DNA from: a virus | Lineage: Duplodnaviria > Heunggongvirae > Uroviricota > Caudoviricetes | Length of the DNA stretch: 15,367 nt | IMG/VR virus record: IMGVR_UViG_2609459844_000007 | Location: 1 to 15,367 of that record | Direction: 5' to 3' (one strand) | In this document: in pieces, positions 1 to 15,367 of the stretch | Layout: every line of letters starts with the position of its first letter | Position numbering within the stretch: the first letter of the stretch is position 1 | The notes under the pieces: model-generated | What the model saw: only the letters and a program-made list of their open reading frames with translations | Told to the model about the DNA's origin: nothing | Databases searched by the model: none | Made by a program: the position numbers and the translations under genes

Positions 1-84
1 ATGGCGGGTTATTTGTCCTGGTTATTCCCCCGTTGTAAAATCTCTCCTAAACTTAACGGTACGGCACCACACTTCGGGGATGAA

Positions 85-276
85 ATGTTCGCGCTGGTAC
101 TTTTTGTTTGCTACCTGGATGGCGGTTGTGAAGATATTGTTGTGGATGTCTACAACACGGAACAGCAGTGTCTTTATTCTATGAGCGATCAACGGATCCG
201 CCATGGCGGTTGTTTTCCGATTGAGGATTTTATAGATGGTTTCTGGCGACCAGCACAGGAGTATGGTGATTTTTAA
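85..276 (+). CDS. yebW: Small conserved protein, 63 aa (MFALVLFVCYLDGG...), matching my recollection of E. coli YebW; the frame is open from position 1 but ATG at 85 gives the 63-aa product
   Basis: ORF track frame 1..276; internal ATG at 85; convergent with and abutting pphA stop; identity from recalled sequence, not searched. Confidence 0.6.
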   Translation: MFALVLFVCYLDGGCEDIVVDVYNTEQQCLYSMSDQRIRHGGCFPIEDFIDGFWRPAQEYGDF

Positions 277-933
277 TTATTGCAATTGCACAAGAGTCAG
301 TTCGCCCCCAAAGACAGCACCGGTATCAATATAATGCAGGTTGCCAATATCCACGCGATGTCGCAACGGTGTATGACCAAACCAGAAATGATCAGCACCT
401 GTAATTCCCTGCCCTTTTTGGCGTTCACCTAATCGCGAGCGGCTCCACAAGACCTGATGCAAATCAACGTCCTTTTGCCATTCATAAACATCATCTGGAT
501 AATCGGCATGAGCAATAACATGTTTGCCGGTACGACTGTGTACTTCAAGAATAAAGGGCAAATGCTGACATTTTTCCAGCGCCGTTTTCGCTTGTTTCTG
601 TTGATTATCTGCCAGCGCAATAAACCAGTCGCCGCCATTCATCAACCACAAAGACATCTGCTGGGATGCCAGCGCATCCATCGCCATCTGTTCATGATTG
701 CCTCTTACCGCACAAACCCAATGTTGTTCCAGTAACTGCAGACAACGTAAACTTTGCGGCCCACGATCGATAACGTCTCCTACTGAGATAAGTAAATCTC
801 GCCACGGATCAAAACGACAATGCCATAATTTGCGGCGCAACTGCTCAAGACAACCGTGTATATCGCCAGAAAGCCAGATATGTCGCCATTGATGACCCGC
901 AATTCTCTGATAAACGGGCGCAGGCTGTTTCAT
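277..933 (-). CDS. pphA: Serine/threonine protein phosphatase 1 (PrpA), calcineurin-like metallophosphatase, 218 aa
   Basis: Translation contains metallophosphatase motifs GDIHG, GDVIDRG, GNHE; sequence matches recalled E. coli PrpA; track ORF 277..936 begins MMKQ, second Met taken as start. Confidence 0.9.
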   Translation of the reverse strand: MKQPAPVYQRIAGHQWRHIWLSGDIHGCLEQLRRKLWHCRFDPWRDLLISVGDVIDRGPQSLRCLQLLEQHWVCAVRGNHEQMAMDALASQQMSLWLMNGGDWFIALADNQQKQAKTALEKCQHLPFILEVHSRTGKHVIAHADYPDDVYEWQKDVDLHQVLWSRSRLGERQKGQGITGADHFWFGHTPLRHRVDIGNLHYIDTGAVFGGELTLVQLQ

Positions 934-1065
934 CAATATTTTCCTCCCGCGCTAAAGATCACATAATCTTAACAAGAATGTTAAAAAACGCTGGACTCAG
1001 ACAGTAGAGTGTGTGTTATGGTTGACTATAAAGTCAGCGAAGGAAATGCTTCTGGCTTTTAACAG

Positions 1066-1098
1066 ATAAAAAGAGACCGAACACGATTCCTGTTTTCG
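1066..1098. repeat. Left prophage-chromosome junction: imperfect direct repeat of the sdsR 3'-end sequence (ataaaaagagaccgaacacgattcctgttttcgtc), about 29/33 identical to the copy at 14764..14795
   Basis: Direct sequence comparison of the two copies; 8-bp identical block agaccgaa (1073..1080) bounded by mismatches is the likely crossover region. Confidence 0.65.
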
Positions 1099-1397
1099 TC
1101 AACAAACAACAAAATCTTTTAGAATTAATGTGTTAAATAAATTTATGCTCATCTTTTAATCCCTAACACATACCATTACATATTAATACATTCAATTAGT
1201 TACCATTTTTTTCGAGTTTTTTAGAGAAATTTTCGGGAATATTTCAGATCAATCCATGCATACACAAGCAATTCCTGTATTGAATAATTCCGTAGCAATT
1301 ATGTAAAATCACCTCCGGCTGATTTTCATTCAAACTCGCGCTATCGAACGTCCATCAGCCAGCCGTGACACGTTCTTGCATACGACGTGCTACGGTT

Positions 1398-1535
1398 TCA
1401 TTTATCTCCGACCGGAAACTTCTTATACAAAGTCGATACGCCAACATCATAGATGATCGCCACCTTCTGGCGAGAAACTCCTGATGCAATTAGTCGTCCA
1501 GCCTGCGCCCATTGCTCCGGCGTGAGAGTAAGACA
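1398..1535 (-). pseudogene. 3' remnant of a Pin/Gin/Hin-family serine DNA invertase gene (C-terminal HTH only, about 45 codons, no start codon, catalytic domain absent)
   Basis: Minus-strand translation ...LTLTPEQWAQAGRLIASGVSRQKVAIIYDVGVSTLYKKFPVGDK* resembles the recalled C-terminal DNA-binding end of PinE-type invertases; in-frame stop immediately upstream. Confidence 0.7.
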
Positions 1536-1610
1536 TTAAACTGTAGAAAAATCTCATTAAACTTAATATAATAATAAGTTACAGAATTATCTTTACTGAA
1601 TAATAGATAT

Positions 1611-2156
1611 ATGAACATTAGTGAACTTAAAAACTGTATACACTATGAAGTAATAGGTTATAAACGCCCTTTCTCCTGGCGAAAAGCAATTGTTCGCGCA
1701 ATAAAACACAGAAGATTACGTTATTTATTTTGGTGGCGCATAGCAAAATATCTTTTTGATAAAGGCGGATACCGGCGAAAGGTTGCAGGAAAAATAGAAC
1801 GCTTCATTCTTGATAAATACAATGTAACCGTTCCCTTAACTGTAAATATTGGTAAAGGGTTCGACATATCTTATCTCAATGGCGTTGTTATCGGTCACAA
1901 AGTTACAATAGGTGAAAATTGTTCAATTAAGCCTGGAGTAACTATTGGACTTCGCGGTGAATTTAATGATATGGATATTGTCATAGGAAATAATGTAACC
2001 ATCGGCTGTAACGCCACCATCCTTGGTGGCAAAGTGCATATAGGGAATAATGTAAAAATAGGAGCTCATGCATTGGTACTGCATGACATTCCTGATGACT
2101 CCACATTCATTACTAAATTTCACTCTGAAATTATTTATAACTCATCTCACACATAA
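1611..2156 (+). CDS. Hexapeptide-repeat (left-handed beta-helix) acyl/acetyltransferase, 181 aa, CysE/LacA/WbbJ/NeuO-like superfamily
   Basis: Visible [LIV]-G-x4 hexapeptide repeats (VIGHKVTIGENCSIKPGVTIG, IVIGNNVTIGCNATILGGKVHIGNNVKIGAHALV); markedly AT-rich relative to neighbours; convergent with tfa. Confidence 0.8.
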   Translation: MNISELKNCIHYEVIGYKRPFSWRKAIVRAIKHRRLRYLFWWRIAKYLFDKGGYRRKVAGKIERFILDKYNVTVPLTVNIGKGFDISYLNGVVIGHKVTIGENCSIKPGVTIGLRGEFNDMDIVIGNNVTIGCNATILGGKVHIGNNVKIGAHALVLHDIPDDSTFITKFHSEIIYNSSHT

Positions 2157-2166
2157 TTCCGTTTAA

Positions 2167-2739
2167 TCACAGCTCTGGCCATACGATATCCGGGGCTGTA
2201 TTTATATCAATCCGACTCACTAATACCCGGTATTTTTTCCAGGAAGATAGCATCGAGACTTCCTCATCAGTTGCCATTTCAAAATTAACAGCATCCTGCA
2301 GAATTGTTATGTTATCAGTCGCTTCCTGGATTAATCTTGCCTTTTTCTCTTCCGCCTCCCGGATCCGGAACAGTTTTTCTGCTTCTGCATCTTTCACCCA
2401 AGCTGTGCCGTTCCACTTCTGAAACTCCCCATCCGGCGACAACCAGGTGACATTTTTCGGTAATGGGCCAAGTTCAGAAATAAATAACGCGTCGCCGGAA
2501 GCCACGTCATAGACGGTTTTACCCCGATGGTCTTCAATGAGATGCCACGATACCTCATCACTGTTGAAAACAGCCACAAAGCCAGCCGGAATATCTGGCG
2601 GTGCAATATCGGTACTGTTTGCTGGCAGACCTGTATGAGGCGGAATATATGCGTCACCGTCACCAATAAATTCATTAGTTCCGGTCAGCAGATTATAAAT
2701 TTTGATGGTTCGTGATTGTTCACTCATTCTGAATGCCAT
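2167..2739 (-). CDS. Tail fibre assembly protein (Tfa family, P2 gpG-like), 190 aa
   Basis: C-terminal region ([18 protein letters not shown]...[25 protein letters not shown]) matches the recalled conserved Tfa C-terminus; start overlaps tail fibre stop. Confidence 0.85.
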
Positions 2740-3854
2740 TATGCAAGCCTCACAATATAGTTAAATGCGATGTTTTTGACGGTGTTTTCCGCGTTACCAG
2801 CAGCGTTAACGGTGATGGTGTGTCCATGTGAGCCAATTGCAACGGAGTGCGTATGTGCACCAATACCGACAGTATGTGTATGCGCCCCAGCACTTGCTGC
2901 AGTACCTGATACTGAGTGGGTATGCGCGCCAGCAGAATTCGTTGCACCTAAGTGAGTTTGAGCAGAGTTCGACGAAGCTACTCTACCGGAGCTAACGTTA
3001 GCATTATCCCCCTGAGATATCGGATGCGTATGTGCACCTGCTGAAGCTGCTGTTCCGCTAACGCTATGGGTATGCGCACCAGTGTTATTCGTAGATTTAG
3101 TTCCATAATCAAACGATGATGTGTTTTTTGTCCCTAAATCTGTATTTGAAGCACTGGCGCTGTGGGTGTGCGATTTAATGCCGTCCTGTTCCTGGCTAAG
3201 AACATCACGTCCACTTGCAGGCTTACCTTTGATTGTCCAGCCACGCATATCAGGGATCACGCCTGACGGATAAGCGGCTGCAAGTTTCGGGTATGCAGAC
3301 TTGTCAAAAGTCTGTCCCTGCATCAGAGCATAACCAGATGGAACTGTATCTGATGGCCACGGGATCGGGGCACCTACAGGAAAGGTCGAATTATTTTCCA
3401 AACCAAGATATTTAAGGACATCAGCAACAGAGCTTTTTGCCAAAATATCTCGCCCAACCTGTGTCAGGTCAGCCAAATTAGCGGTATCTTGATTGGTAAA
3501 ATACGGTAATTTGTTTTCGGATGCTGAAAGATTAGCAAGTGCGGTAAGTATGGCATTAATTCTCTGATAGTTCTTATCTAATGCAGACGACATTTTTGCG
3601 ATAAAGCCTGCCTGATCGCCATCGTCCTGTACATCCAGTCCACTTTCATTTGCTGTATATTGTGCCATTGCAGATGCAATAAAGCTGGCCTGCCGAATAA
3701 CCTTATTGACTTGCGCACTGGATGCTTTCCCTGCTGTAAATCCGGATAAAAGCGCAGGCAACGCTTCCCATTCCTCCTGCGGCATAACATTGGCATTTTT
3801 ACCCGTTGCAAACGCTTTAAAGTCATTTTTCGCCATCAGAGTAATACTCCCCAT
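2739..3854 (-). CDS. Phage tail fibre protein (P2 gpH-like N-terminal region, collar-type C-terminal domain with GAHTHS repeats), 371 aa
   Basis: Segment [37 protein letters not shown] resembles recalled P2 gpH; repeated [19 protein letters not shown] motifs; position upstream of tfa. Confidence 0.8.
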
Positions 3855-4516
3855 GCTCCTATATCAAAACCACTGATGAATTCGTTATCCATATCAAAAC
3901 CAAAAAATTTTGAGCTTTCCGATGGGGTTTCCACCGAAGGTGTTTCAATGCCACCCGCCCATACCCCGGCGGCTTTTACTGTGAGATACCCCTGTTTAAT
4001 TGCCGCAATTAACTCACGCGATACATCTGAAATATCAGTATCAGGAAAGACCCAGACCGATATCGTCATGTCCTGGTTATCGACTATCTGCATTCGCAGC
4101 CCGGCTCCTGCTGTTACAGCGTCAAGAATTGCCGGAAGCGAATCATTCCGTCCGTCCCAGTTATTAATCGCAATCTTCGCTTTAAGAATGACACGATAGG
4201 TTTCATCGCTGAGGTACATGTATCCGGAATCAGGATCGTATGGTCCCTGCCATACCCCCTGATCATATCCAAGCCCGTCGGTATCCCAGCTGAAATAGAC
4301 ACCTGAGATAGGCTGGCTGACAATACGGCTACGTCCGATCCACAATCCCAGAATGTCAAGTTGCACACCAACCGCAGAGTCAATATCAAATGCAGTAATC
4401 AGCCCTCTGGTGGCAGCCGCAACATCAATAAGCGGCCGGGTCATCAGATCAACATGTGCAAGAAATTTAGGTTTGGTGGCGTGATAGTTTGTGATTAGTT
4501 CGGTGTATTTGCCCAT
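3836..4516 (-). CDS. Putative phage baseplate/tail protein (P2 gpI / e14 YmfQ position), 226 aa
   Basis: Long ORF between baseplate-J fragment and tail fibre in J-I-H-G order; overlapping start/stop coupling with both neighbours; family assignment by position only. Confidence 0.5.
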
Positions 4517-5094
4517 GACTCCACCGTTATAACGATATTTTCCGGGGTACAGGACGCAGATTCGTTATATCTGATATCAATGTTTGATGACGACAAAGCC
4601 CCCGGGGATTTCCCAATCGTCAGTTCCTGAATATCGTAATAGCGTGCATTCCCGCCACTCGCCACGCCAAGATTCGCCGGTGAGTAAATGCGACTTAAAA
4701 GGACTGAATCACCAATCGTCAGACTATTGATATAGTCGGAAATAGCCTGCTGGATCTGCTGCCCTATCTGTGAGGTATAACCCGTAAAAACTTTTAATTT
4801 AATCCGGGCATAAACAGGCACATCACTGGAACGCGAGAATTTGATTACATGGGGATTGCCGTATTTATCCGGAACCGTAACGGATGTTGTACCGTGAGTG
4901 GCTGTCCCCTGGCCTTTATTCCCTCTGATAGCCTGAGCAATATCCGTCACATCACCGCCATCCACAATTACAGCAACAGAGTGTGGCGGTAACCCGTTAC
5001 CGTCCTCCGAACCAGTATCGTTTTCATAGAGTTTGTGGCGGGTTACACCGGTAACATTAGAAACAGCACCATCCAGTGCTTCAAATGGGGTTAA
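4495..5094 (-). pseudogene. Baseplate J-like protein, C-terminal fragment (5' end deleted)
   Basis: ORF has no plausible native start (track begins at a TTG inside the junction); reading frame runs directly out of the truncated dnaC-like gene; position upstream of gpI-like gene. Confidence 0.6.
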
Positions 5095-5497
5095 CCACAA
5101 TCACTGTCTGACCGTCTTTCAGCAGGCGATTCCCGATAGCTGCCGCTAAGTGATTCTTCCCGGTACCAGGTTTTCCGCTGAACGCAAAATTTGTACACCC
5201 GGTCATCAGTTCATCGGCGATGGATTTCGCCTGGCTTAACGCGTGTCGCTGGCCGTCGTTCTGCACCTGGTAATTCGCAAACGAGCATTTACGGTGCAAC
5301 GGCTGGATGCCTGAGCGATTCAGAATTTTTTCCACCCGCAACTGGCGATTCAGGCGGTTGATCTCCTCGCTACGTTTCTGGCCTTCAGCAAGTTGCCACT
5401 CGCGCCACTCCGCTACCGTTCTGAATGGTGCGGTTACATGTGGCGGAGTCAGTCGGCGGATGCGTTCCAGAACGCCGCCTGTCGCAATATTTTTCAT
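5081..5497 (-). pseudogene. DnaC-like phage replication protein (helicase loader, YdaV-like), N-terminal 135 aa only; reading frame leaves DnaC homology after ...GQTVIVV and stops
   Basis: Strong resemblance to recalled E. coli DnaC N-terminal half including Walker A GKPGTGKNHLAAAI; DnaC homology ends at about 5093 then NPI-stop. Confidence 0.8.
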
Positions 5498-5503
5498 GGT
5501 CCG

Positions 5504-6298
5504 TTACCCCCTGAAGCCTGGCGGGATCGCACTGTCCGGCAACGAGACGGTGTTAACCTGTCGGAGCAACGTCTCAGGCCGAACACCTTTCGGCGCGAAC
5601 AGGCCCTGGTATTCATTGGCGATACTGTGTCGAATCACCTGCTCGGGTGTAAAACCCTGCTGGCGGAATTTTTCCAGCTCCCGTATCGCCCCGTTAGCGC
5701 CCTGCTCCGTTCGAATCGGTTTTCGCAATGCCTGCCTGAACCGGACCCACTCATGCCAGAGTGTTTCCGGCAACCAGTCAGGCAGCTCAATAGCCTCCGG
5801 CTCAAATTTTTTAGACGCTCGTTTTTGGCGAGGGGGATTTAGGGGGAGATCAGTATTTATATCTTCCTCTTCCTCTTCCTCTTCCTCTGGTAACGCTTTT
5901 TGATCCATTTGTGTAACGCTGCCAGCGTTACCTTTTCGTTTCAGTTCGCGTATTTTTGTAACTCGCTCGTTTGTAACCGCCCGTTTTTTAGAGCTTTTTC
6001 CGTTATGACGTTCAAAGTTAGGTAGAGAAAGCCCAACGTCATTTTCGACCAGCCATCCAACCTGAATTAACGCATCAGCAAAACCAGCCATAAAAGTGAT
6101 GCGATCTATTGCACTTTTTGTAACGCCGCGAGCGTTACAATCTGCATTACCGTCTATCATTTGTTGATCCGCCCATGCCCAGAAGCGAATAACCTTCCCT
6201 AATGCGGCATCTGGATCAATATTCAGAATCTCAGCAAGCCTGAATATTTCCGGCTTATCCGGCGTAATAACCTCGAGCTTTATCCAGTTTGAAGCCAT
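5504..6298 (-). CDS. Phage replication initiation protein (YdaU-like), 264 aa, with internal poly-Glu tract
   Basis: Position between CII-like gene and dnaC-like gene as in Rac (ydaT-ydaU-ydaV); family assignment by position and recollection. Confidence 0.65.
   Translation of the reverse strand: MASNWIKLEVITPDKPEIFRLAEILNIDPDAALGKVIRFWAWADQQMIDGNADCNARGVTKSAIDRITFMAGFADALIQVGWLVENDVGLSLPNFERHNGKSSKKRAVTNERVTKIRELKRKGNAGSVTQMDQKALPEEEEEEEEDINTDLPLNPPRQKRASKKFEPEAIELPDWLPETLWHEWVRFRQALRKPIRTEQGANGAIRELEKFRQQGFTPEQVIRHSIANEYQGLFAPKGVRPETLLRQVNTVSLPDSAIPPGFRG
5863..5888. repeat. Simple sequence repeat (cttcct)x4, encoding the EEEEEEEE tract of the replication protein on the minus strand
   Basis: Direct reading of sequence. 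Confidence 0.9.
5913..5931. promoter_or_regulatory. 19-bp palindrome gtaacgc-tgcca-gcgttac (copy 1 of 3), candidate protein-binding site/iteron
   Basis: Perfect 7-bp inverted arms with 5-bp spacer; same arms recur at 6120 and 6312. Confidence 0.45.
6120..6138. promoter_or_regulatory. 19-bp palindrome gtaacgc-cgcga-gcgttac (copy 2 of 3)
   Basis: Direct reading; 207 bp from copy 1. Confidence 0.45.
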
Positions 6299-6311
6299 TT
6301 GTTTTCACCTT

Positions 6312-6330
6312 GTAACGCTCGCAGCGTTAC
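6312..6330. promoter_or_regulatory. 19-bp palindrome gtaacgc-tcgca-gcgttac (copy 3 of 3), just upstream of the replication gene start
   Basis: Direct reading; 192 bp from copy 2. Confidence 0.45.
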
Positions 6331-6375
6331 ATTTAACTGATACCGAACAAAACAATCCGGCACGATTAATTTCAA

Positions 6376-6798
6376 TCAATGCACTACGACAGAATCGCCG
6401 GGCGACCCACCACCGCTGAAATGTGCTTTCCGGTAAACGGCCTGGACTGCATCATCATGCGCATCAATTGCCGTACTCAACGCTTCCTGCGCCGCCAGTA
6501 ATGCACGGCGTTCCAGGGTATCGAAGATGCAGAGTCGGTGACGCAGCTCGCGCGGAAGAATTGCCAGAACCGCAGGGATCAGTTTCTGAATTTTTTCCCT
6601 TTGCGCTTTCGTTTCACCTTTCAACCAACGGTGATAGATATTCTGCTGATTGTTCCAGTCCTTGCCTGGTACAAGGGGCAATTCGCCGCCCCCCTGGCGC
6701 AGATATTCTTCAGTAATTGCGTTAGCGACCCACGCCTGCCCTTTTTCGGCTGCCAGGGCTAACAACACTGATTCGATGTGCTCATGCCTGATTTTCAT
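6376..6798 (-). CDS. ydaT: YdaT-like (CII-like) prophage regulatory protein, 140 aa
   Basis: Sequence resembles recalled Rac YdaT; overlaps upstream Cro-like gene by 4 nt; position downstream of cro. Confidence 0.7.
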   Translation of the reverse strand: MKIRHEHIESVLLALAAEKGQAWVANAITEEYLRQGGGELPLVPGKDWNNQQNIYHRWLKGETKAQREKIQKLIPAVLAILPRELRHRLCIFDTLERRALLAAQEALSTAIDAHDDAVQAVYRKAHFSGGGSPGDSVVVH

Positions 6799-7037
6799 GA
6801 ATCAACCGCTCCTATGCTGTTTTCGCTATGCTTACCGTCTGGGGGGAATACATCGTCAAGTCCACAATGAGCGCCAAGCCGATTAAGGGTAGAAACAATT
6901 TTTCTGCACTCCTCTAGTCCAGGGGTACGAAAATTTGCTTCGTAATTTGCCAGTCGGCTTTGTATCCACCCTAACTGAACAGCAAGTTGTCTTTGAGACA
7001 GCCCAAGCTGTTTTCGATATGTTGAAATTTTGTTCAT
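6795..7037 (-). CDS. Cro-like HTH DNA-binding protein (YdaS-like), 80 aa
   Basis: HTH LGLSQRQLAVQLGWIQSRLANYEA; divergent from repressor gene; GGAGG Shine-Dalgarno 6 nt upstream of ATG. Confidence 0.75.
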   Translation of the reverse strand: MNKISTYRKQLGLSQRQLAVQLGWIQSRLANYEANFRTPGLEECRKIVSTLNRLGAHCGLDDVFPPDGKHSENSIGAVDS

Positions 7038-7061
7038 TGAAAACCTCCGATGACAATTTTA

Positions 7062-7122
7062 AACACACCTTGTGTTATATGGTCAAGCTGTTTTGTGTTT
7101 TATGTAAATCACGATTCGTGAT
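7062..7122. promoter_or_regulatory. Right operator region: inverted repeats aacac-N5-gtgtt (7062..7076), degenerate copy (7085..7099), atcac-N5-gtgat (7108..7122) at 23-bp spacing, between divergent cro-like and repressor genes
   Basis: Direct reading; candidate -35 TTGACC on minus strand (complement of 7081..7086) for the cro-like gene. Confidence 0.6.
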
Positions 7123-7133
7123 ACAAGGATGCA

Positions 7134-7553
7134 ATGGAAAAAGAAAACGAAAAAATTGCCGCCAGTAGGCTCAATGACAAAATTGCAATGCGTCTTAAAG
7201 AGCGCAGGCAGAAGCTTGGTTTATCTCAAGGAAAACTTGCTGAAATCTGCGGATGGACGCAATCGCGTATAGGTAACTATGAGGCGGGCAGCAGAAATGT
7301 TGGAGTGCATGACGCTGTCGTATTGGGAAAGGCACTTGGCATATCTCCTCCTGAGCTCCTCTTTGGAGAACAGGAATCTTCTGAATTGTGGTTAAATGAA
7401 TCCCAACGAAAACTTCTTGAGTTGTTTAACCAGCTACCGGGCTCAGAACAACAACGAATGATTGAGCTATTTGAAGTCCGGCTAAAAGAAATCGATGAGT
7501 ATGTAGAAAAATATTTGAGAGGCAGGCTTAAAGATAATCCCCCACCGGAGTAA
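7134..7553 (+). CDS. CI-like prophage repressor, XRE-family HTH, 139 aa, no LexA/S24-like peptidase domain
   Basis: HTH LGLSQGKLAEICGWTQSRIGNYEA nearly identical in the recognition region to the Cro-like protein; divergent arrangement across operators. Confidence 0.8.
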   Translation: MEKENEKIAASRLNDKIAMRLKERRQKLGLSQGKLAEICGWTQSRIGNYEAGSRNVGVHDAVVLGKALGISPPELLFGEQESSELWLNESQRKLLELFNQLPGSEQQRMIELFEVRLKEIDEYVEKYLRGRLKDNPPPE

Positions 7554-7583
7554 TGATCTTGCTATCACAGTAATATGCCAATC

Positions 7584-7608
7584 AGCCCGCTATCAGCGGG
7601 CTTTTTTG
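7584..7608 (+). terminator. Rho-independent terminator after repressor gene (agcccgct-atc-agcgggct + TTTTTTG)
   Basis: Perfect 8-bp stem, 3-nt loop, U-tract. Confidence 0.75.
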
Positions 7609-7637
7609 TACCATCATCATATGACACTCACCGAAAA

Positions 7638-7679
7638 AACACATTTCGTGTTGACATAAGAAAACGCATTGTGTTTAAT
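7638..7679 (+). promoter_or_regulatory. PL-like promoter (TTGACA 7651..7656, 17-bp spacer, TTTAAT 7674..7679) with overlapping operator aacac-N5-gtgtt (7638..7652) and a second degenerate operator (7661..7675)
   Basis: Direct reading; same operator motif and 23-bp phasing as in the right operator region. Confidence 0.6.
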
Positions 7680-7853
7680 AAGCATATCCAAACAACGCCC
7701 CATCAGAGAACGGCAGGACAATACCTCGAGTTATCCAGTCACTGAACAGGGCTAAGTAGCCAGCCTGAGGCATACGAACATGACGGCAGTTGTTGATTGA
7801 TACAAAGCGCAGTAGATAAAACGTTCCGCCACCCGGCGTTAAGGGGAAAAAAG

Positions 7854-8072
7854 ATGGTTGGTGAAGATCTGGTTGTTATTAACGGTCAATTGTGCAGCAA
7901 AGATGTGGCAGCCATGCTTATTAGCAAGGTTCTTCCAACTGTGCTGGAGGTCATTGCAGAAAAAGTAAAGGCTGGTCGTCCAGACAAGGAAGTTGAAGAG
8001 GCGGCAAAAACAGTTGTTCATGCCGCTACAGAAGCAATTATTTTGAAGAGCCTAGTTTCGCCCAAGCCTTAA
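7854..8072 (+). CDS. Hypothetical small protein, 72 aa (MVGEDLVVINGQ...), first ORF downstream of PL-like promoter
   Basis: Strong SD AAGGGG 7 nt upstream of ATG at 7854; T7 tract 8085..8091 downstream; no recognisable family. Confidence 0.5.
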   Translation: MVGEDLVVINGQLCSKDVAAMLISKVLPTVLEVIAEKVKAGRPDKEVEEAAKTVVHAATEAIILKSLVSPKP

Positions 8073-8232
8073 GTGAATCGGCGCTTTTTTTAGCATCACG
8101 TTCATTGAGTAGTGACAAAAACTCATTCTCAGCATTCTCGATTTCCGAGAAAAATTCTTGATGAGTTGTTTCTCGCTGCGATCTGATGCTGAAAACTAAA
8201 GCAAGTAGCCAGGCTTTGTCTTTATTATCCAT
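8038..8232 (-). CDS. Hypothetical small protein, 64 aa (MDNKDKAWLLALVFSIRSQRE...), convergent with and overlapping the 3' end of the 72-aa ORF
   Basis: SD AAGG 7 nt upstream of ATG; candidate sigma70 promoter on minus strand (-10 TATACT = complement of 8267..8272, -35 TTTACC); no family recognised. Confidence 0.35.
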   Translation of the reverse strand: MDNKDKAWLLALVFSIRSQRETTHQEFFSEIENAENEFLSLLNERDAKKSADSLKAWAKLGSSK

Positions 8233-8418
8233 AGGAATACCTTATTACTGGTTGTGTGAGAACTCCAGTATACCACCGAGCCTGAAGTGGTAAAAAGACA
8301 GGCGCACAACACGAAGGCGCATTTCCGGTATTCATAAAGAGTCGGACTTGTCTGTTAAATTTAAATGGTGGGAGTGCGCCTCCGGTTGTAAATAACGACA
8401 TTGCTATGTGTAGTCTTT

Positions 8419-8462
8419 GGCGGCATCAGTTCTACTCCGTGGCTGCCCTGCCGCCCCTTTTT
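8419..8462 (+). terminator. Terminator-like GC stem (ggcggca ... tgccgcc) followed by TTTTT, inside noncoding region upstream of kilR
   Basis: Direct reading; large loop, so strength uncertain. Confidence 0.35.
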
Positions 8463-8627
8463 AAAGTGAATTTTGTGATGCGGTGAATGCGGCTAAGCGC
8501 ACGCGGCACAGTTAAAAGCATCAGTGTTATGGGTGGATTATCCGGCGTTAATTGTTAACTGGTTAACGTCACCTGGAGGCACCAGGCACCGCATCGACAA
8601 AATTCATTTGTAAAAATGGTGATAATT

Positions 8628-8849
8628 ATGATTGCTCATCACTTCGGAACTGATGAAATACCACGTCAGTGTGTGACCCCTGGCGATTATGTTCTTCATG
8701 AAGGTCGGACATATATCGCCTCGGCAAACAATATTAAAAAGCGAAAACTTTATATTCGAAGCCTGACAACAAAAACATGCATTTCTGACTGCATGATTAA
8801 AGTCTTCCTCGGTCGTGATGGTTTACCTGTAAAGGCGGAGTCATGGTAA
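8628..8849 (+). CDS. kilR: KilR-like cell-division inhibitor (Rac kil), 73 aa
   Basis: Sequence [35 protein letters not shown]... matches recalled Rac KilR; gene order kilR-ydaE-racC-recE; track ORF starts 12 nt upstream at 8616 without an SD. Confidence 0.8.
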
Positions 8850-9019
8850 TGACTAAGAAAATAAAATGTGCTTATCACCTTTGCAATAAAGAAATTGAAG
8901 AAAGCAAAATCATTACAAGACCACTTCATTTCATGCGTGAAGTTATACCAACGACGGAAATGAAAAAATATTGTAGTGAAATCTGTGCCGAAAAAGACCA
9001 GATGGCACACGAACTTTAA
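8849..9019 (+). CDS. ydaE: YdaE-like small Cys-rich metal-binding protein, 56 aa (not in ORF track because under 60 aa)
   Basis: Manual translation [56 protein letters not shown]; start overlaps kilR stop (TAATG); position as in Rac. Confidence 0.7.
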   Translation: MTKKIKCAYHLCNKEIEESKIITRPLHFMREVIPTTEMKKYCSEICAEKDQMAHEL

Positions 9020-9093
9020 TTAACTGACTATCCGAAACTGAATTTATGCCAGCAATGGCAGGGATTCGCTCAACCTTAATTAAGGAGAAAAAC

Positions 9094-9369
9094 ATGATTA
9101 CCAGTTATGAAGCCACTGTTGTTACTACTGATGACATTGTTCACGAAGTCAGCCTGGAAGGAAAGCGTATTGGCTACGTGATTAAAACAGAAAATAAAGA
9201 AACCCCTTTCACTGTGGTTGATATCGACGGTCCATCAGGCAACGTTAAAACGCTTAACGAAGGCGTCAAAAAAATGTGCCTGGTGCATATCGGAAAGAAT
9301 CTGCCCGCAGAAAAAAAAGCCGAATTTCTGGCAACTCTGATTGCAATGAAATTAAAAGGTGAAATCTGA
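9094..9369 (+). CDS. racC: RacC-like protein, 91 aa
   Basis: AAGGAG SD 6 nt upstream of ATG at 9094; sequence matches recalled Rac RacC; track ORF starts further upstream at 9046. Confidence 0.8.
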   Translation: MITSYEATVVTTDDIVHEVSLEGKRIGYVIKTENKETPFTVVDIDGPSGNVKTLNEGVKKMCLVHIGKNLPAEKKAEFLATLIAMKLKGEI

Positions 9370-9374
9370 AAGAA

Positions 9375-9399
9375 ATAGCCTGCGTATGGCGCAGGCTAT
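9375..9399 (+). other. Perfect 10-bp inverted repeat hairpin (atagcctgcg-tatgg-cgcaggctat) without U-tract, between racC and recE
   Basis: Direct reading. Confidence 0.6.
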
Positions 9400-9469
9400 G
9401 AACAGTGTGTATCCGGCAAGATTATTCACTGAACAAACGAATTTTAATCTGAGTTGAGGTTAAAAAACA

Positions 9470-12400
9470 ATGAGCACCGATAAACAAGTTTACCCACTGT
9501 ATTACGAAGCAAAAAATGACAAAGTAAGAAAACGTCTCGGTATTAAAGGCGGTTTTTACTGGGCTGAAGCGAAAAAATTATCCATTGCCATCTCCCGTGG
9601 TGCTGTTGCGATTGACGATGCTGGCTACGATGAAGATGACTTCAAAAAACCTGTTCGCGTCAATTTGCCCGTTGTTGATGACCTCCCGCCAGAAGGCGTA
9701 TTTGATACGGAATTCTGCAACCGTTACGAAAAAGGCGGGGAAGATGGCATCACAATGGTATTTATCGCGCCCTCACCCTCTGCGCAGGGCAAACCAGCCG
9801 GCACTGACAACACCAATGTTAATGGCGAAGACATGACGGAGATTGAGGAGAATATGCTACTCCCGATTTCTGGCCAGGAGCTGCCCATTCGCTGGCTTGC
9901 TCAACACGGCAGCGAAAAACCGGTAACGCACGTTTCACGCGACGAACTCCAGGCATTACACATTGCACGGGCTGAGGAACTACCAGCTGTTACTGCCCTA
10001 GCTGTTTCCCACAAAACCAGCCTGCTCGATCCGCTGGAAATTCGCGATCTCCACAAACTGGTGCGTGATACTGACAGAGTTTTCCCTAATCCAGGCAATT
10101 CAAGCCTGGGACTGATGACTGCTTTTTTCGAAGCATACATGAACGCAGACTACACCGATCGCGGTCTGCTGACAAAAGAGTGGATGAAAGGAAATCGTGT
10201 TTCACGCATCACGCGCACGGCTTCCGGCGCTAATGCTGGCGGCGGGAACCTCACCGATCGCGGCGAAGGTTTCGTTCACGATCTGACGTCACTGGCGCGC
10301 GACGTAGCCACTGGCGTACTGGCTCGTTCAATGGACGTGGACATTTATAACCTTCATCCGGCACACGCTAAACGTGTCGAGGAAATTATCGCTGAAAATA
10401 AACCGCCCTTTTCTGTTTTCCGCGACAAATTCATCACCATGCCTGGCGGGCTGGATTATTCCCGCGCCATCGTGGTTGCCTCCGTAAAAGAAGCACCAAT
10501 TGGGATCGAGGTTATCCCCGCACACGTCACTGAATATCTGAACAAAGTACTGACTGAAACTGATCATGCCAACCCTGATCCGGAAATCGTGGATATTGCC
10601 TGCGGTCGCTCCTCTGCCCCGATGCCGCAGCGTGTAACAGAAGAAGAAAAACAGGATGATGAAGAAAAACCGCAACCATCTTGCGCAATGGCAGATGAAC
10701 AGGCAACGGCTGAAACAGTGGAACCGGATGCAACTGAACATCATCAGGACACGCAGCCGCTGGATGCTCAGTCACAGGTAAATTCTGTTGATGCGAAATA
10801 TCAGAAACTGCGGGCAGAACTCCATGAAGCCCGGAAAAACATTCCGCCCAAAAATCCTGTCGATGCAGACAAATTACTGGCTGCCTCTCGCGGAGAATTT
10901 GTTGAAGGGATTAGCGACCCGAATGATCCGAAATGGGTTAAGGGGATCCAGACCCGCGATTCTGTGTACCAGAATCAGCCAGAAACGGAACAGAACGACC
11001 AGAAAGCGGAACAGAACAGCCCAAATACGCAACAAAACGAGCCAGAAACGAAACAGCCTGAGCCAGTAGTGCAACAACTGGAAACGGAGAAAGTTTGCAC
11101 CGCCTGCGGTCAGGCTGGCGGCGGCAACTGTCCTGACTGCGGCGCGGTGATGGGCGACGCAACGTATCAGAAAACCTTTAATGAAGAAAATCAGAATGAA
11201 TATCAGGAAAAAGGTCTGGAGGAAATGGAAGGTGCTGAACATCCGCACAAGGAGAACGCTGGCAGCAATCCGCATTGCGATTGCAGTGATGAAGCTGGTG
11301 AAGCGACAGCACCTGTAGTAACTGAAATCATGTGGCCGTCATATTTCGAGCCTGGCCGCTATGAAAACCTCCCGAACGAGGTTTATCACTCCGCCAACGG
11401 AATAAGCAGCACAATGCTGAAGGATGCCCGCATCAGCCTGATGTATTACCACGGACGGCACATTGCCGGAACTATTCCGGGCGAGGAAAGTGATGCATTG
11501 CTGCGTGGGCGAATTATTCACAGCTATGTTCTGGAAACGGATAAATTCGCTGATGAGTATGCCATTCCGGTACCGGTTCCTGAATATGTGGTTACTACTT
11601 CTAACGAACTGATCGCCATCATTAAAAAACACAATGCCAGTCTGCCAGCACCGATGACACCAGAGCAGATGAAAGAGTGGATCGAAAGCTACAACAGCAC
11701 TCTTATACAGCCACTGTCGGTAAGTGCCGGGGCCGAAGAAACAGGCATCCTTTACGGTTCGCTTCCGGAGGAATTCCGGCGTATTCCTGAGGGGGAAAAA
11801 CACACAGCATCAGCAATGAAAGCCTGTATTAAAGAATACAACGCAAACCTCCCTCCTCTGTTGAAAACCAGTGGATCACGGGAGCAACTTCTGGAGCAAA
11901 TTGAAACTGTAGATCCAGAACTGGCAAAAAAAGAACGTGCTAAATCTTTGCCTTACAACATCAGTGGCACAAAAGAGCAATTAACCGAAATCGCACGGAA
12001 AATTCGCCCGGAACTGGTGACACTGGAAGACTGGCAAAAACGCCAGCAAGAAGAAAACGCCGGGAAAACGTTTATCAGTCCGGATATGTATGAACAGGCA
12101 AAAAATATTCACGCTGCACTGCAAAACAATACCGATGCAGCAAGGCTACTCAACCACCCGGATCGCAAATCTGAAATCAGCTATTTCGGGTTTGATGAAG
12201 AAACCGGGCTGGAAATCAGGGTCCGTCCTGATATCGAAATCCGGCTGCCATACGAAAGCATTTGCGCCGACGTGAAGTCAGTCAGCCTCGGTTATGTGCG
12301 ACAGGAACGACTGAAAGATCGCCTGCACCGTGAAATTATTGAGCGTGATTATCACCTCAGCGCAGCAATGTATTGCGATGTGGCAAACCTGGACAAATTT

Positions 12401-12766
12401 TTCTGGATCTTCGTCAACAAAGATGCTGGCTATCACTGGGTGGCCGTCGTGGAAGCCTCGCAGGAACTCCTGGAACTTGGTCGACAGGAATATCGCCGGA
12501 CGCTACGACAGATAAATGAAGCTCTGGAGACAAACAACTGGCCAGCACCGATTACCGAAAGTTATACCGACGAATTAAACGACTTTGATCTTCGTCGTCT
12601 TGAGAAGATGATAAATAACCTGCCTTCATCAGGTGATCCAGAAGCAGAACAAAAATTTATTGCTCTGGAAAATACGCTGAATGCTGCACGACCACATCTG
12701 GGAGAATTATATGAGGCGTATAAAACGACACTGACAGATATGAAACCAGAATATATCGGCTCCTGA
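9470..12766 (+). CDS. recE: RecE-family exonuclease VIII homologue, 1098 aa, with divergent C-terminal PD-(D/E)XK nuclease domain carrying a ~150-aa insertion and a C-terminal extension
   Basis: N-terminal/central ~600 aa closely resemble recalled K-12 RecE (e.g. [43 protein letters not shown]); Cys4 cluster [16 protein letters not shown]; PD...DVK motif at 12227..12276. Confidence 0.85.
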
Positions 12767-12774
12767 TATTTACT

Positions 12775-12798
12775 ATGGCGGTGTAGCCTCACCGCCAT
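12775..12798 (+). other. Perfect 9-bp inverted repeat hairpin (atggcggtg-tagcct-caccgccat) between recE and ralR
   Basis: Direct reading. Confidence 0.6.
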
Positions 12799-12829
12799 AA
12801 CAAAACTTTATTTTATGAGAGAAAAGACA

Positions 12830-13024
12830 ATGCGGTATGAAAAAGTCAAACCATGTCCGTTTTGTGGTTGTCCATCAGTAACGGTGAAAGCCATTTCAGG
12901 ATATTACCGCGCAAAGTGTAACGGATGCGAATCCCGAACTGGCTATAGTGGAAGTGAAAAAGAAGCACTCGAAAGATGGAATAAACGAACTACTGGAAAT
13001 AATAATGGAGGTGTTCATGTATAA
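12830..13024 (+). CDS. ralR: RalR/Lar-like restriction alleviation protein, 64 aa
   Basis: MRYEKVKPCPFCGCPSVTVKAISGYYRAKCNGCESRTGY... matches recalled Rac RalR (Lar); Cys4 motif; track ORF begins at upstream ATG 12815. Confidence 0.8.
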   Translation: MRYEKVKPCPFCGCPSVTVKAISGYYRAKCNGCESRTGYSGSEKEALERWNKRTTGNNNGGVHV

Positions 13025-13205
13025 AATTACTGCCACTATTGAAAAGGAAGGTGGCACTCCTACTAACTGGACAAGGTACTCAAAAACAAAATTAACCAAA
13101 TCAGAATGCGAAAAAATGCTCTCAGGTAAAAAAGAAGCAGGCGTTTCCAGAGAGCAGAAAGTAAAGCTGATAAATTTTAATTGCGAGAAGCTTCTGTCCT
13201 CGTGA
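13017..13205 (+). CDS. ydaC: YdaC-like small protein, 62 aa
   Basis: GGAGG SD 5 nt upstream of ATG 13017; overlaps ralR stop; resembles recalled Rac YdaC; track ORF starts at 12948 inside ralR. Confidence 0.65.
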   Translation: MYKITATIEKEGGTPTNWTRYSKTKLTKSECEKMLSGKKEAGVSREQKVKLINFNCEKLLSS

Positions 13206-13260
13206 GTTGCATTATATACAAATTAGAACTTCATAGCTGATTATTAAAAATCAACCACCC

Positions 13261-13289
13261 CCGCCAGTATTCTGTATATTTACTGGCGG
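13261..13289 (+). other. 9-bp inverted repeat hairpin (ccgccagta ... tactggcgg, 11-nt loop) between ydaC and xis
   Basis: Direct reading. Confidence 0.55.
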
Positions 13290-13305
13290 TCATATCGTAA
13301 GAGGT

Positions 13306-13592
13306 ATGGCAATGAATCTTGTGACACTAAAAACGTGGGGAAACTCAGATATCCAGATAACCCACCATCAATATCAACGCTGAGACGATGGGCAAGGAAT
13401 GGAAACATTTATCCTGCACCTGAACTACACGGGAGGAGTTACAGGGTGGTTCCGGAGGCTTTCTATATCAACCCAAATAAGGTTGATACCGATATAACAC
13501 ACCATCAGCCTAATGGGCGACAAGGGAGAGACAGTCCGTTACTGGAGAAGTTAAAACATGCAGCGGAAAAAATACGATCCCAATTTGCCTAA
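13306..13592 (+). pseudogene. Excisionase (lambda Xis-like winged helix) with apparent -1 frameshift in a G4 run (13337..13340); downstream frame opens with GTG at 13335
   Basis: Frame 1 from ATG 13306 encodes MAMNLVTLKTWG then stops; frame 3 continues KLRYPDNPPSISTLRRWARNGNIYP...; together they align with the recalled lambda Xis N-terminus (LTLQEWNARQRRPRSLETVRRWVRE). Confidence 0.55.
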
Positions 13593-14634
13593 AAACTTAA
13601 CATATCGAAGGAGGGACAAAGCATATTACTGGCGCAACCCTATGACGAAAGAAGAATTTACACTAGGTAAAATTTCAAGAAGAGATGCAGTAGCGCAGGC
13701 AATTGAAGCAAATCATTATATATACAAAAACTACTCTCCTGCTGCCTTAATTGAAAAGCTTAAAGGGTTCGACTCATTTACTATGGCAGACTGGATTGAA
13801 CGTTACAAAACGATTCTTATAAGGAGAAAAGTGTCCAGAAATACTTATAAAATTCGGGTAAATCAACTGGAGACAATAAAAGAAAAATTGGGAGGGATTT
13901 TACTGACAGAAATAACCACTCGCCATATTGCCGAGTTTCTTGATTTGTGGATTGAAGGAGGGAAAAACACGATGGCAGGATCAATGCGTTCTGTGTTATC
14001 TGATATGTTCCGCGAGGCCATTGTTGAAGGACGTATATCTCAAAATCCAGTAACGCCAACAAGAGCACCGAAAATAGTAGTTACAAGAGAACGGCTGAAA
14101 CTAAAGACATACAACTGCATCAGGGAGGCAGCAGATCAACTTCCGACATGGTTCCCATTAGCTATGGACTTAGCCCTTGTAACAGGACAACGTCGCGAAG
14201 ACATAACGAATATGCGGTTCAGTGAGATTTATGATGATCGTCTCCACATCAGGCAAATTAAGACAGGAATGATGATTGCTATCCCCCTGTCACTCAGCCT
14301 TCCTGTCGCTGGTTTACGACTTGGTGCAGTAGTTGAACAGTGCCGCATGGTAAGTAGGGGGGATTATCTAATCAGTGCCGGGATTAGAAAAAACAGCCCT
14401 GACGGTAGCATTCACCCGGACGGCCTGACAAAGAAATTTGTCGCAGCCAGAAAATTAACAGGTATCCAGTTCAGTGAAAACCCACCAACTTTTCACGAGA
14501 TCAGAAGCCTGGCTGGACGATTGTACAAAGAAACATGTGGAGAAGAATTTGCTCAGCGTCTACTTGGCCACACATCGGAGAAGACAACAAAAATGTATCT
14601 TGATGAGAGAGAAAAAACGTACTTACTGCTCTGA
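13558..14634 (+). CDS. int: Tyrosine integrase, lambda Int family, 358 aa
   Basis: N-terminus aligns with recalled lambda Int (PPNLYIRNNGYYCYRDPRTGKEFGLG versus [27 protein letters not shown]); catalytic-region motifs [21 protein letters not shown]-terminal Tyr in TTKMYLDE. Confidence 0.9.
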
Positions 14635-14710
14635 TTTTAACGTAAATGGATTGTTAAATGTATTTTGGTTGTGATATAACCAAAAAGACCGGAATACAGA
14701 AATTCGAGTA

Positions 14711-14730
14711 AATTTCGGGGAATTTCGGGG
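14711..14730. repeat. Tandem direct repeat aatttcgggg x2 in the int-proximal att arm; candidate arm-type integrase binding sites
   Basis: Direct reading; related motif aaattttcgggaat at 1227..1240 in the opposite arm. Confidence 0.4.
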
Positions 14731-14763
14731 AGACGTTTGCAACTAATTGATTTTAAATACAAT

Positions 14764-14795
14764 TAAAAAAAGACCGAATACGATTCCTGTATTCG
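14764..14795. repeat. Right prophage-chromosome junction: att-core copy that is also the terminator hairpin of sdsR
   Basis: Imperfect direct repeat of 1066..1098; perfect hairpin gaccgaatac-gattcct-gtattcggtc. Confidence 0.65.
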
Positions 14796-14868
14796 GTCCA
14801 GGGAAATGGCTCTTGGGAGAGAGCCGTGCGCTAAAAGTTGGCATTAATGCAGGCTTAGTTGCCTTGCC
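14764..14868 (-). ncRNA. sdsR: SdsR (RyeB) RpoS-dependent small RNA, about 105 nt
   Basis: Minus-strand sequence GGCAAGGCAACUAAGCCUGCAUUAAUGCC...GGACCGAAUACAGGAAUCGUAUUCGGUC(U)n matches recalled SdsR; sigmaS-type -10 CTATTCT (complement of 14874..14880) upstream; terminator hairpin plus U-tract. Confidence 0.85.
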
Positions 14869-14955
14869 CTTTAAGAATAGATGACGACGCCAGGTTTTCC
14901 AGTTTGCGTGCAAAATGGTCAATAAAAAGCGTGGTGGTCATCAGCTGAAATGTTA

Positions 14956-14996
14956 AAAACCGCCCGTTCTGGTGAAAGAACTGAGGCGGTTTTTTT
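14956..14996. terminator. Bidirectional rho-independent terminator (accgcccgttct ... agaactgaggcggt flanked by A5 and T7) serving ryeA (+) and yebY (-)
   Basis: Direct reading of stem and flanking U-tracts on both strands. Confidence 0.65.
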
Positions 14997-15025
14997 ATTG
15001 GAAATCAAAAGGCTATTTTAGGTAA

Positions 15026-15367
15026 TTAACAGAGTTTTTCAGCTCGTTCTATAAACGGTGCCAGACTCATTTTTTCGCCGGGATTGTTAGGATCATCAAT
15101 CTGAATCACCGAAATGGGTTGGGCTTTAGTCTTCCCACTGGCAACTTCCTTTTGTGCGATATCGTTTAAAGGATACTGCACGAGGGTACTTGGGTTAATG
15201 ACATACAAAGCATTACCCGGTCTGCAAGTCAGCATCACCTCTTCGCGATTAAACGCCCATTTGTCTTTACCCACTTCAAAACGACTGACGGTAATCACCT
15301 GCGGTGCAGCCAGCGCCGCTGCAGAACTGGTGAGTAACAGAAACGTCAGAATACTTTTTTTCATCAT
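15026..15367 (-). CDS. yebY: YebY, DUF2511-family secreted protein with signal peptide, 113 aa
   Basis: [23 protein letters not shown] signal peptide; matches recalled E. coli YebY; start codon is the last triplet of the window. Confidence 0.85.

Follow-up and report, generated by a model that had tools for sequence, protein, structure and literature searches.

The stretch analysed here, positions 1 to 15,367 of IMG/VR virus record IMGVR_UViG_2609459844_000007 (Caudoviricetes; 15,367 nucleotides, hereafter the window), carries at positions 1611 to 2156 a gene for a 181-amino-acid (aa) protein with the left-handed β-helix (LbH, or hexapeptide-repeat) acyltransferase fold. Comparison with sister prophages and with phages of other backbones places this gene in a mobile cassette, together with a putative promoter, the tail fibre assembly gene tfa, and the tip of the side tail fibre gene stf. 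The cassette lies where the sister prophages keep a complete Pin DNA inversion switch, of which the window retains a stump. The anatomy and evolutionary history described below are, from these comparisons, close to certain. The whole explanation, in which the gene would also serve as lysogenic-conversion cargo that changes the cell surface, we place a little under an even chance. Three points are new: how the cassette is built, the synteny with tfa that reaches deep into the family, and a catalytic dyad that is replaced under purifying selection. The features on which the argument depends are as follows.

1398..1535, minus strand: Pin/Gin-family DNA invertase remnant, C-terminal helix-turn-helix part, 45 codons plus stop (translation, tblastn)
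1527..3675, no strand: replacement block, 2.15 kb (blastn against the sister prophages at loci L013 and L014; junction alignment)
1537..3380, no strand: mobile cassette with putative promoter, acetyltransferase-like gene, tfa, and the C-terminal 213 fibre residues (limits of shared homology)
1544..1572, plus strand: sigma-70-like putative promoter, TAGAAA-17-TATAAT, 39 nucleotides (nt) upstream of the ATG (10/12 consensus matches)
1611..2156, plus strand: 181-aa LbH (hexapeptide-repeat) acyltransferase-fold open reading frame (ORF) (ORF list; Pfam Hexapep, E = 1e-13)
2167..2739, minus strand: tail fibre assembly protein Tfa, 190 aa (Pfam Caudo_TAP, E = 8e-38; PHROG 105)
2739..3854, minus strand: hybrid side tail fibre stf, 371 aa (Pfam Collar and Phage_fiber; mosaic limits)

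Replacement of the Pin inversion switch

The minus-strand frame of 1398..1535 translates to CLTLTPEQWAQAGRLIASGVSRQKVAIIYDVGVSTLYKKFPVGDK*; a stop codon precedes it, and it has no start codon. The initial annotation had recognized here about 45 codons of pin, and all of its coordinates hold. The stump is 97.6% identical to residues 143 to 184 of the intact 184-aa PinE (tblastn), lacks the catalytic domain, and is labelled by RefSeq as a pseudogene without an N terminus. An intact pin gene and crossover sites were looked for on re-examination of the window, and neither is present: tblastn with intact PinE returned no second invertase-like sequence anywhere in the 15.4 kb, and neither the pattern AAACCNNGGTTT nor a 26-nt Gin/Hin-like consensus located a Gin/Pin-type crossover site. 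An inverted-repeat scan of the window found no relevant inverted repeat. A Din-family invertible segment comprises an intact serine recombinase, an inverted pair of crossover sites, and alternative fibre genes. While the stump resembles the e14 Pin, Mu Gin, and P1 Cin switches in being PinE-like, the window differs from them in having no recombinase catalytic domain, no crossover sites, and no alternative fibre genes.

The full switch is retained by the sister prophages of strains LWY24 and Z1323CEC0018, which likewise occupy sdsR/ryeA, beside pphA. Their gene order is pinE (184 aa, minus strand), an alternative stf' tip and tfa' (plus strand), and then tfa and stf (minus strand). These prophages contain a 20-nt inverted pix pair, AAACGTTGGTTTGGGAGAAG / CTTCTCCCAAACCAAGGTTT, located at L013 7689-7708 and 9512-9531, that has the look of Din-family crossover sites and lies within the stretch that is replaced in the window. 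In blastn comparisons with L013 and L014, the window and its sisters are collinear, at 96 to 97% identity, over positions 1-1526 and 3676-5094 only. Between these limits, the 2.15-kb block stands in place of approximately 2.5 kb that comprises the first 142 or so codons of pin, the two crossover sites, the alternative stf'/tfa' pair, and the resident tfa and fibre tip. The incoming block brings a different tfa and a different fibre tip, and the acetyltransferase gene is absent from both sister prophages.

Judged from the sequence, the Pin inversion system is dead in the window prophage, because the 5' part of pin, the pix sites, and the alternative fibre genes have been replaced. The gene does sit in the place of the invertible segment and the 5' end of pin, as had been proposed. 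The accompanying suggestion, that a moron insertion destroyed the inversion system, was right about the loss of the switch but not about the event, which was the replacement of about 2.5 kb by a 2.15-kb block and not an insertion.

A mobile cassette shared among phage backbones

The cassette was delimited by homology to three unlike elements. Homology to a lambdoid prophage of enterotoxigenic Escherichia coli (ETEC) H10407 extends from 1326 to 3380 (96% identity), homology to P1-like plasmids extends from 1537 to 3380 (83%), and homology to phage vB_EcoM-613R2, which has P2-type baseplate genes, extends from 1543 to 3383 (81.5%). The left edge of the cassette is the point at which pin is truncated. 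Since these limits recur across backbones, the mobile unit consists of the putative promoter, the gene, tfa, and the last 213 fibre residues. The stf gene of the window is accordingly mosaic: its N-terminal 60 or so residues (3676-3854) are those of the resident prophage, and its C-terminal 213 residues (2739-3380) are those of the cassette.

The gene was found in 91 of 5426 complete E. coli genomes, at 65 chromosomal places (95 to 99.5% identity) and 27 plasmid places (approximately 89%). Fifty-nine complete E. coli genomes contain the full-length junction between the stump and the gene, some of them in lambdoid prophages inserted at prfC/dinI (ETEC H10407) or at att-lambda, beside ybhB. Because an identical junction is present in 59 genomes and at other attachment sites, the cassette, which fixes one host range, must have been imported ready-made by recombination, with one crossover in the pin 3' end and a second in stf, and the idea that the event was local to this prophage is not borne out. 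The simplest history that fits the sequences is that a single truncation made the junction and that the unit then spread by recombination, through arms provided by conserved fibre sequence and the pin 3' end.

An intermediate predicted for this locus, with an intact invertase and an alternative tfa' followed by this acetyltransferase, occurs in no complete E. coli genome; two "DNA-invertase" annotations in those genomes are the same pin stump. It is likewise present in 0 of 80 IMG/VR loci, one of which has an 82-aa invertase fragment. An intermediate-like arrangement was found only in the P1-like phage-plasmid JL22, with a distant homologue. There, sacF (37% identity) is flanked by U' and tfa within an intact cin-invertible segment bounded by 602-nt inverted repeats, so that the acetyltransferase and inversion are not mutually exclusive. 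Inversion in JL22 would put sacF downstream of, and in the same orientation as, the expressed fibre genes. The repeats of JL22 (ON018986.2; L024 1827-2428 and 6689-7290; 602 nt, 99% identity) flank a 5.5-kb segment that encloses S', U', sacF, tfa, and the stf tip.

Further observations concern copies of the cassette elsewhere. The E. coli B lineage (B-3008, L028 3575-3718; KCTC 2571) has the same stump and the first 48 or so codons of the gene; IS1 interrupts the gene there, where the cryptic lambdoid prophage at att-lambda ends. In P1-like plasmids, the holin gene and the acetyltransferase gene are separated by approximately 1 kb of GC-rich DNA without an annotated gene, at the site of cin in P1. 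Within this interval of the P1-like plasmid NZ_CP062860.1 (L003 6236-6505), Rfam detects group II intron D1-D4 fragments, at 97 and 47 bits.

Base composition and expression signals

The ORF has a GC content of 36.1% (28.6% at third codon positions) against a mean of 45.4% for the window, and the 75-nt leader at 1536-1610 has 17%; tfa, stf, and the pin stump have 46 to 49%. Just 1.6% of 546-nt intervals are equally AT rich, and the minimum begins at position 1529. The GC profile thus confirms the description of a conspicuously AT-rich gene in opposite orientation: the ORF converges with tfa, with 10 nt separating tfa from its stop codon. In its absence from close sister prophages and its deviant base composition, the gene resembles a moron, a kind of cargo gene that would also bring its own promoter and terminator.

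The putative promoter at 1544-1572, at the edge of the cassette, is the best promoter-like site within 1300-2800. Its hexamers are kept in all four genomic contexts, despite divergence of the surrounding DNA, with TACAAT in 613R2. On the plus strand, nothing resembling a terminator comes after the stop codon.

Fold, active-site residues, and selection

The protein belongs to the LbH superfamily, scoring 50.6 bits with Pfam PF00132 against a cut-off of 27. The top-ranking NCBIfam models are EpsC (85.5 bits; cut-off, 150), the CysE model TIGR01172 (77.9 bits; cut-off, 210.65), and WcaB (60.3 bits; cut-off, 196); PRK11132 scores 52.8 against a cut-off of 397, and the Vat, CatB, LacA, and Maa families match weakly, at 24 to 34 bits. 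The sole match in PHROGs is phrog_2154, annotated as "unknown function," and we found no paper that mentions it. Among proteins of solved structure, serine acetyltransferases are the nearest in sequence (E = 2e-13). An AlphaFold2 (AF2) model built from a 68-sequence alignment reached a predicted local distance difference test score (pLDDT) of 91.7 and shows LbH coils, with the expected short-strand spacing, after four N-terminal helices; the top Foldseek matches to this model are serine acetyltransferases, with template modelling (TM) scores of 0.75 to 0.77. A first model, from 24 sequences, had a pLDDT of 72.8, a poor LbH part, and no significant Foldseek match (best E, 0.44), and it was dropped. 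As modelled, the fold and domain order are those of short CysE/EpsC/WcaB-type acetyltransferases. The four-helix N-terminal domain is basic and Trp rich, with 19 Lys or Arg residues within the first 70; the protein has a pI of 9.8 and no transmembrane segment.

The catalytic pair of CysE is His158 and Asp143 (E. coli numbering), its G-(D/K)-R-H-P loop binds the serine carboxylate, and the C-terminal coils of CysE-type enzymes bind coenzyme A (CoA). Alignment via PDB entries 4n69 and 6wye places Tyr88 of the window protein at the His of the D-H-A-T-G motif (CysE His158) and Thr73 at the Asp/Glu of the (I/V)-(D/E)-I-H-P motif (CysE Asp143). Where CysE has Asp143, Asp157, and His158, the window protein has Thr, Ser, and Tyr. 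It also lacks the serine-binding loop, G(D/K)RHP, in place of which it reads E-F-N-D-M-D-I; the motif occurs only in the EpsC/CysE-like rows of the alignment. At the dyad positions, the 68-sequence alignment has His in 59 sequences and Asp or Glu in 47, and distant IMG/VR loci keep both the His and the Asp/Glu in all cases. Tyr combined with Thr, Lys, or Val is confined to nine sequences of the alignment, which make up the clade of the window protein. Going by these residues, the protein is neither a serine acetyltransferase nor a canonical His-base O-acetyltransferase. The name "hexapeptide-repeat acetyltransferase" given to it initially describes the LbH fold (Pfam, AF2) correctly, but the usual catalytic residues are replaced by Tyr88 and Thr73.

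The C-terminal coil residues G140, G145, N147, V148, G151, and A152 are invariant or nearly so. The dN/dS ratio is 0.08 to 0.12 in comparisons with the P1-like and 613R2 copies, at dS values of 0.43 to 0.64, and 0.05 between two more distant members of the clade. Strong purifying selection (dN/dS of about 0.1) and the conserved C-terminal coils indicate that the protein is functional.

Conserved convergence with tfa

In order to assess the linkage of the gene to tfa, we counted, among the 80 IMG/VR loci, those with a convergent tfa within 60 nt of the stop codon or in a 30-nt overlap. This arrangement was present in 40 of 41 loci with at least 85% identity to the window protein, in all three loci at 48 to 53% identity, and in 18 of 33 loci at 36 to 45% identity that had room downstream. 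It recurs in Hafnia phage yong2, Citrobacter phage phiNP, JL22, and a P2-like contig. The search for homologues in other prophage contexts, which the initial annotation had called for, thus located them in lambdoid, P1-like, P2-like, and other phages.

The fibre tip of the cassette is 68.7% identical to the C terminus of T4 gp37 and 67.6% identical to lambda Stf, and we take the receptor of a tip of this type to be OmpC and/or the lipopolysaccharide (LPS) core. A link between tfa and the gene that is specific to one fibre type was ruled out: the fibre beside the P2-like homologue is unrelated, and its Tfa is common only over the last 60 or so residues. Homologues that keep the catalytic His (the His clade) are also found beside a P2-like integrase and an HNH gene. 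On a Citrobacter metagenome scaffold (L010 6001-6552), copA and cueR flank a solitary His-clade homologue with 45% identity, far from any phage gene, which shows that members of the family can also form chromosomal islets of a single gene.

Proposed function and competing explanations

We propose that the gene would be lysogenic-conversion cargo, expressed in the lysogen from its own putative promoter. The protein would be cytoplasmic and probably held at the inner face of the membrane by its very basic, Trp-rich N-terminal domain. Most likely, it would use acyl-CoA as the donor to acylate a lipid-linked glycan of the envelope (for example, the LPS core, the O unit, enterobacterial common antigen, or colanic acid) and so alter the surface as it is met by phages with the accompanying fibre type. 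The outcome could be superinfection exclusion, protection of progeny from debris, or a change of serotype. With the general base missing, the chemistry would have to be noncanonical: Tyr might serve as the base, an amine acceptor might need none, or the substrate might assist. Among LbH N-acetyltransferases, QdtC and WlbB work without a catalytic base. That the best NCBIfam matches include the exopolysaccharide enzymes EpsC and WcaB, although below their cut-offs, is consistent with a glycan acceptor, and we judged that the closest homologues are not simply housekeeping enzymes without a polysaccharide link, the finding that the initial annotation had named as the one to speak against surface modification. 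Acylation of a glycan at the cytoplasmic face of the membrane, with a changed surface presented to phages or to the host, is a reading that we hold tentatively, as somewhat less probable than its negation.

Several observations weigh against it. The catalytic His/Asp dyad is replaced in every member of the window clade, and to our knowledge loss of both the His and the Asp/Glu is unprecedented among characterized LbH O-acetyltransferases. The gene has no link to an acceptor substrate, a partner gene, or a polysaccharide cluster, and in the literature we found only listings as unexplained cargo and no paper that assigns a function. There is no clear Shine-Dalgarno sequence upstream of the gene, and the leader, at 17% GC, may be a target of H-NS silencing. 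If the receptor is OmpC or the LPS core, a glycan change may not be the relevant barrier. Finally, certain His-clade homologues are found away from fibre genes, as orphans or at the margins of prophages; given these orphan loci and the unrelated fibre tips, the linkage to tfa may reflect a favoured cargo slot and not a matched receptor.

A bolder form of the proposal seems to us unlikely. It holds that the Tyr88/Thr73 clade would be an LbH transferase with a new catalytic solution (Tyr as the base, or a change to an amine acceptor for which no base is required), or a noncatalytic derivative, that masks the receptor of the copackaged gp37/Stf-type tip, and that fibre tip, chaperone, and receptor modifier would together move between lambdoid, P1-like, P2-like, and other phages as a self-contained host-range and exclusion module.

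Among the explanations that compete with envelope glycan acylation, the one that survives best, while improbable in itself, is that the Tyr88/Thr73 clade is without transferase activity and is kept as a binder of acyl-CoA, of a glycan precursor, or of a host or phage protein, possibly in connection with fibre assembly. Such a pseudoenzyme is suggested by the replacement of the dyad throughout the clade, against retention of the His in 59 of 68 relatives, by the adjacency to tfa, and by purifying selection, which means that some function is retained. Conservation of the CoA-binding type of C-terminal coil is nevertheless unexpected for it, relatives with an intact dyad fill the same tail-fibre slot, which suggests a continuous enzymatic role, and transcription opposite to the late genes ill suits a virion assembly factor.

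Still less probable is a role in defence or counterdefence, or in the modification of a different target in the cytoplasm, be it a small molecule, a nucleotide sugar, or a protein, with the site after tfa acting as a general cargo hotspot. PADLOC gave no family match even at E <= 1, and the gene stands singly, without a partner. The position itself could be read this way, since the slot after P2 gene G is a recognized moron position (PMC3573123), adjoining fibre tips can be unrelated, and His-clade homologues occur at prophage edges, beside an integrase and an HNH gene, or as the copA-cueR orphan; tight adjacency to tfa (10 to 60 nt) across backbones, down to approximately 38% identity, exceeds what would be expected of a loose hotspot.

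The remaining alternatives can be dealt with briefly. An enzyme acetylating xenobiotics or antibiotics (of the CatB, Vat, or maltose/galactoside type) and carried for resistance is very improbable, because the weak matches to Vat, CatB, LacA, and Maa at 24 to 34 bits are at least 10-fold below the cut-offs and cover only generic LbH turns, the N-terminal domain and the fold are CysE-like, and the catalytic His is absent. We give hardly any credence to a true serine O-acetyltransferase that would raise cysteine production by the lysogen: CysE enzymes do have the most similar solved structures, and the RefSeq product name assigned by the Prokaryotic Genome Annotation Pipeline (PGAP) is "serine acetyltransferase," but the TIGR01172 and PRK11132 scores fall far short, the serine-binding loop is absent, and Thr, Ser, and Tyr replace the three CysE residues. 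This RefSeq name is an overannotation that could mislead metabolic reconstructions. A decaying, functionless passenger in a dead prophage, as the heavy deletion of the prophage and the IS1-truncated gene of the E. coli B lineage might suggest, is just as hard to credit, since the frame is intact, the selection analysis contradicts decay (dN/dS of about 0.1 across plasmid, phage, and chromosome copies), and the gene is present in the sequenced phage vB_EcoM-613R2 and in P1-like plasmids.

If the proposed glycan acylation does modify the surface, it would be an uncharacterized lysogenic-conversion function in about 1.7% of complete E. coli genomes. The carriers include ETEC H10407 and P1-like phage-plasmids that also spread resistance genes, and relatives are found in Citrobacter, Hafnia, and Providencia. 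The package of fibre tip, chaperone, and modifier would, if the proposal is true, allow host range and self-exclusion to be swapped as one unit, and this would bear on the prediction of phage susceptibility in phage therapy and typing. Replacement of the dyad under strong purifying selection also provides a test case for LbH enzymology.

Comparison with known systems

The initial annotation likened the gene to NeuO, which is reportedly the K1-capsule O-acetyltransferase of prophage CUS-3. The analogy holds for position: both are LbH-superfamily prophage cargo beside a receptor-binding tail gene, with the logic of lysogenic conversion. Enzymes of the NeuO type acetylate the surface polysaccharide to which the tail protein of their own phage binds; for the window protein such a role would be hypothetical, and its sequence does not carry the analogy further. 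The window protein scores only 21.7 bits against the polysialic-acid O-acetyltransferase 2wlc, over residues 119-167 (49 residues) that represent generic LbH turns, and NeuO belongs to another LbH branch; the families closest to the window protein are CysE, EpsC, and WcaB. Unlike NeuO, the window protein has a CysE-like N-terminal domain and lacks the catalytic His. The heptanucleotide phase-variation tract is a feature of NeuO and not of the window gene, and within 1300-2800 no tandem repeat of this kind was found except for a chance 19-nt repeat inside tfa.

The window protein shares with CysE, EpsC, and WcaB the order of a helical N-terminal domain followed by LbH, a predicted fold with TM scores of 0.75 to 0.77, and conserved C-terminal coils. 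It differs from them in scoring far below the family cut-offs, in having no serine loop and no polysaccharide cluster, and in having Tyr/Thr for His/Asp; with regard to EpsC and WcaB specifically, the scores are below cut-off and the neighbours are phage tail genes.

NeaT is the product of a moron in a P2-like prophage of E. coli CFT073, an AT-rich acyltransferase gene that comes after P2 gene G and runs counter to the tail genes. The gene is transcribed from a promoter of its own and occurs rarely and sporadically in phages of different types, and its product changes surface behaviour and virulence (PMC3573123). The likeness to the window lies in an un-ameliorated, AT-rich (about 30% GC) acyltransferase gene just after the tail fibre assembly gene and opposite the tail genes (PMC3573123). 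NeaT is an integral-membrane protein of the Acyl_transf_3 family (PF01757), whereas the window protein is a soluble LbH protein with no relationship to it in sequence or fold. By analogy, NeaT is the nearest functional precedent, in position only.

Two published genes belong to the same family and occupy the same convergent position by tfa: sacF of JL22 (37% identity; PMC9603915) and "sat" of the Citrobacter rodentium phage phiNP (42% identity; PMC6456863). The respective papers list them as cargo without an assigned role. In contrast to the window protein, both proteins have the His and the acidic residue of the dyad, and JL22 also keeps cin, with the gene inside the invertible segment.

Prophage setting and attachment site

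BLAST against MG1655 identified the window as a 13.7-kb prophage remnant in sdsR/ryeA, adjoining pphA. Backbone of the K-12 type (yebW, pphA, and part of ryeA/sdsR) occupies window positions 1-1098, and a second stretch occupies 14764-15367; these correspond to positions 2038-3135 and 3104-3707 of the K-12 locus and overlap by 32 bp inside sdsR/ryeA. A direct-repeat search across the window had missed this 32-bp attachment duplication, which was recovered by the comparison with MG1655. A complete SraC/SdsR copy is retained at 14761-14905 (Rfam). Two further features lie at this end of the prophage.

1067..1098, no strand: prophage attachment-core copy, left limit of the K-12-like backbone (32 bp recurring at 14764-14795)
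1099..1397, no strand: AT-rich noncoding distal prophage end (collinear with the sister prophages at L013 and L014)

The stretch at 1326-1397 recurs where numerous lambdoid prophages end. Position 1326 is where homology to the prophage of ETEC H10407 begins, and HK97, phi80, and Shiga toxin phages also match this part of the window. In many genomes, PGAP places a pseudogene of approximately 100 nt named "nucleocapsid protein" or "capsid protein" just past the pin stump (e.g., L022 2976-3077; equivalents of window 1326-1400), which looks like a spurious name.

Window positions 1-5093 correspond to the tail end of the RM8082 prophage, and positions 5092-15367 correspond to its Rac-like early region (recE, recT, ydaT, and integrase). 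These two parts lie approximately 27 kb apart in RM8082, and the structural genes have therefore been lost from the window copy. The internal deletion of about 27 kb, at window position ~5092-5094, leaves the baseplate J gene truncated and directly abutting the Rac-like early region, and the tail genes beside the acetyltransferase gene are consequently unable to build a particle. The acetyltransferase gene itself is kept intact in this prophage, shorn of about 27 kb of structural genes. Within the Rac-like part, Rfam identifies the RalA antitoxin small RNA at 13023-13201 (minus strand, 212 bits) and DicF at 8405-8456 (plus strand, 61 bits). The IMG/VR contig UViG_2778261502_000002 carries a 100% identical gene at the same coordinates and is probably the same sequence as the window.

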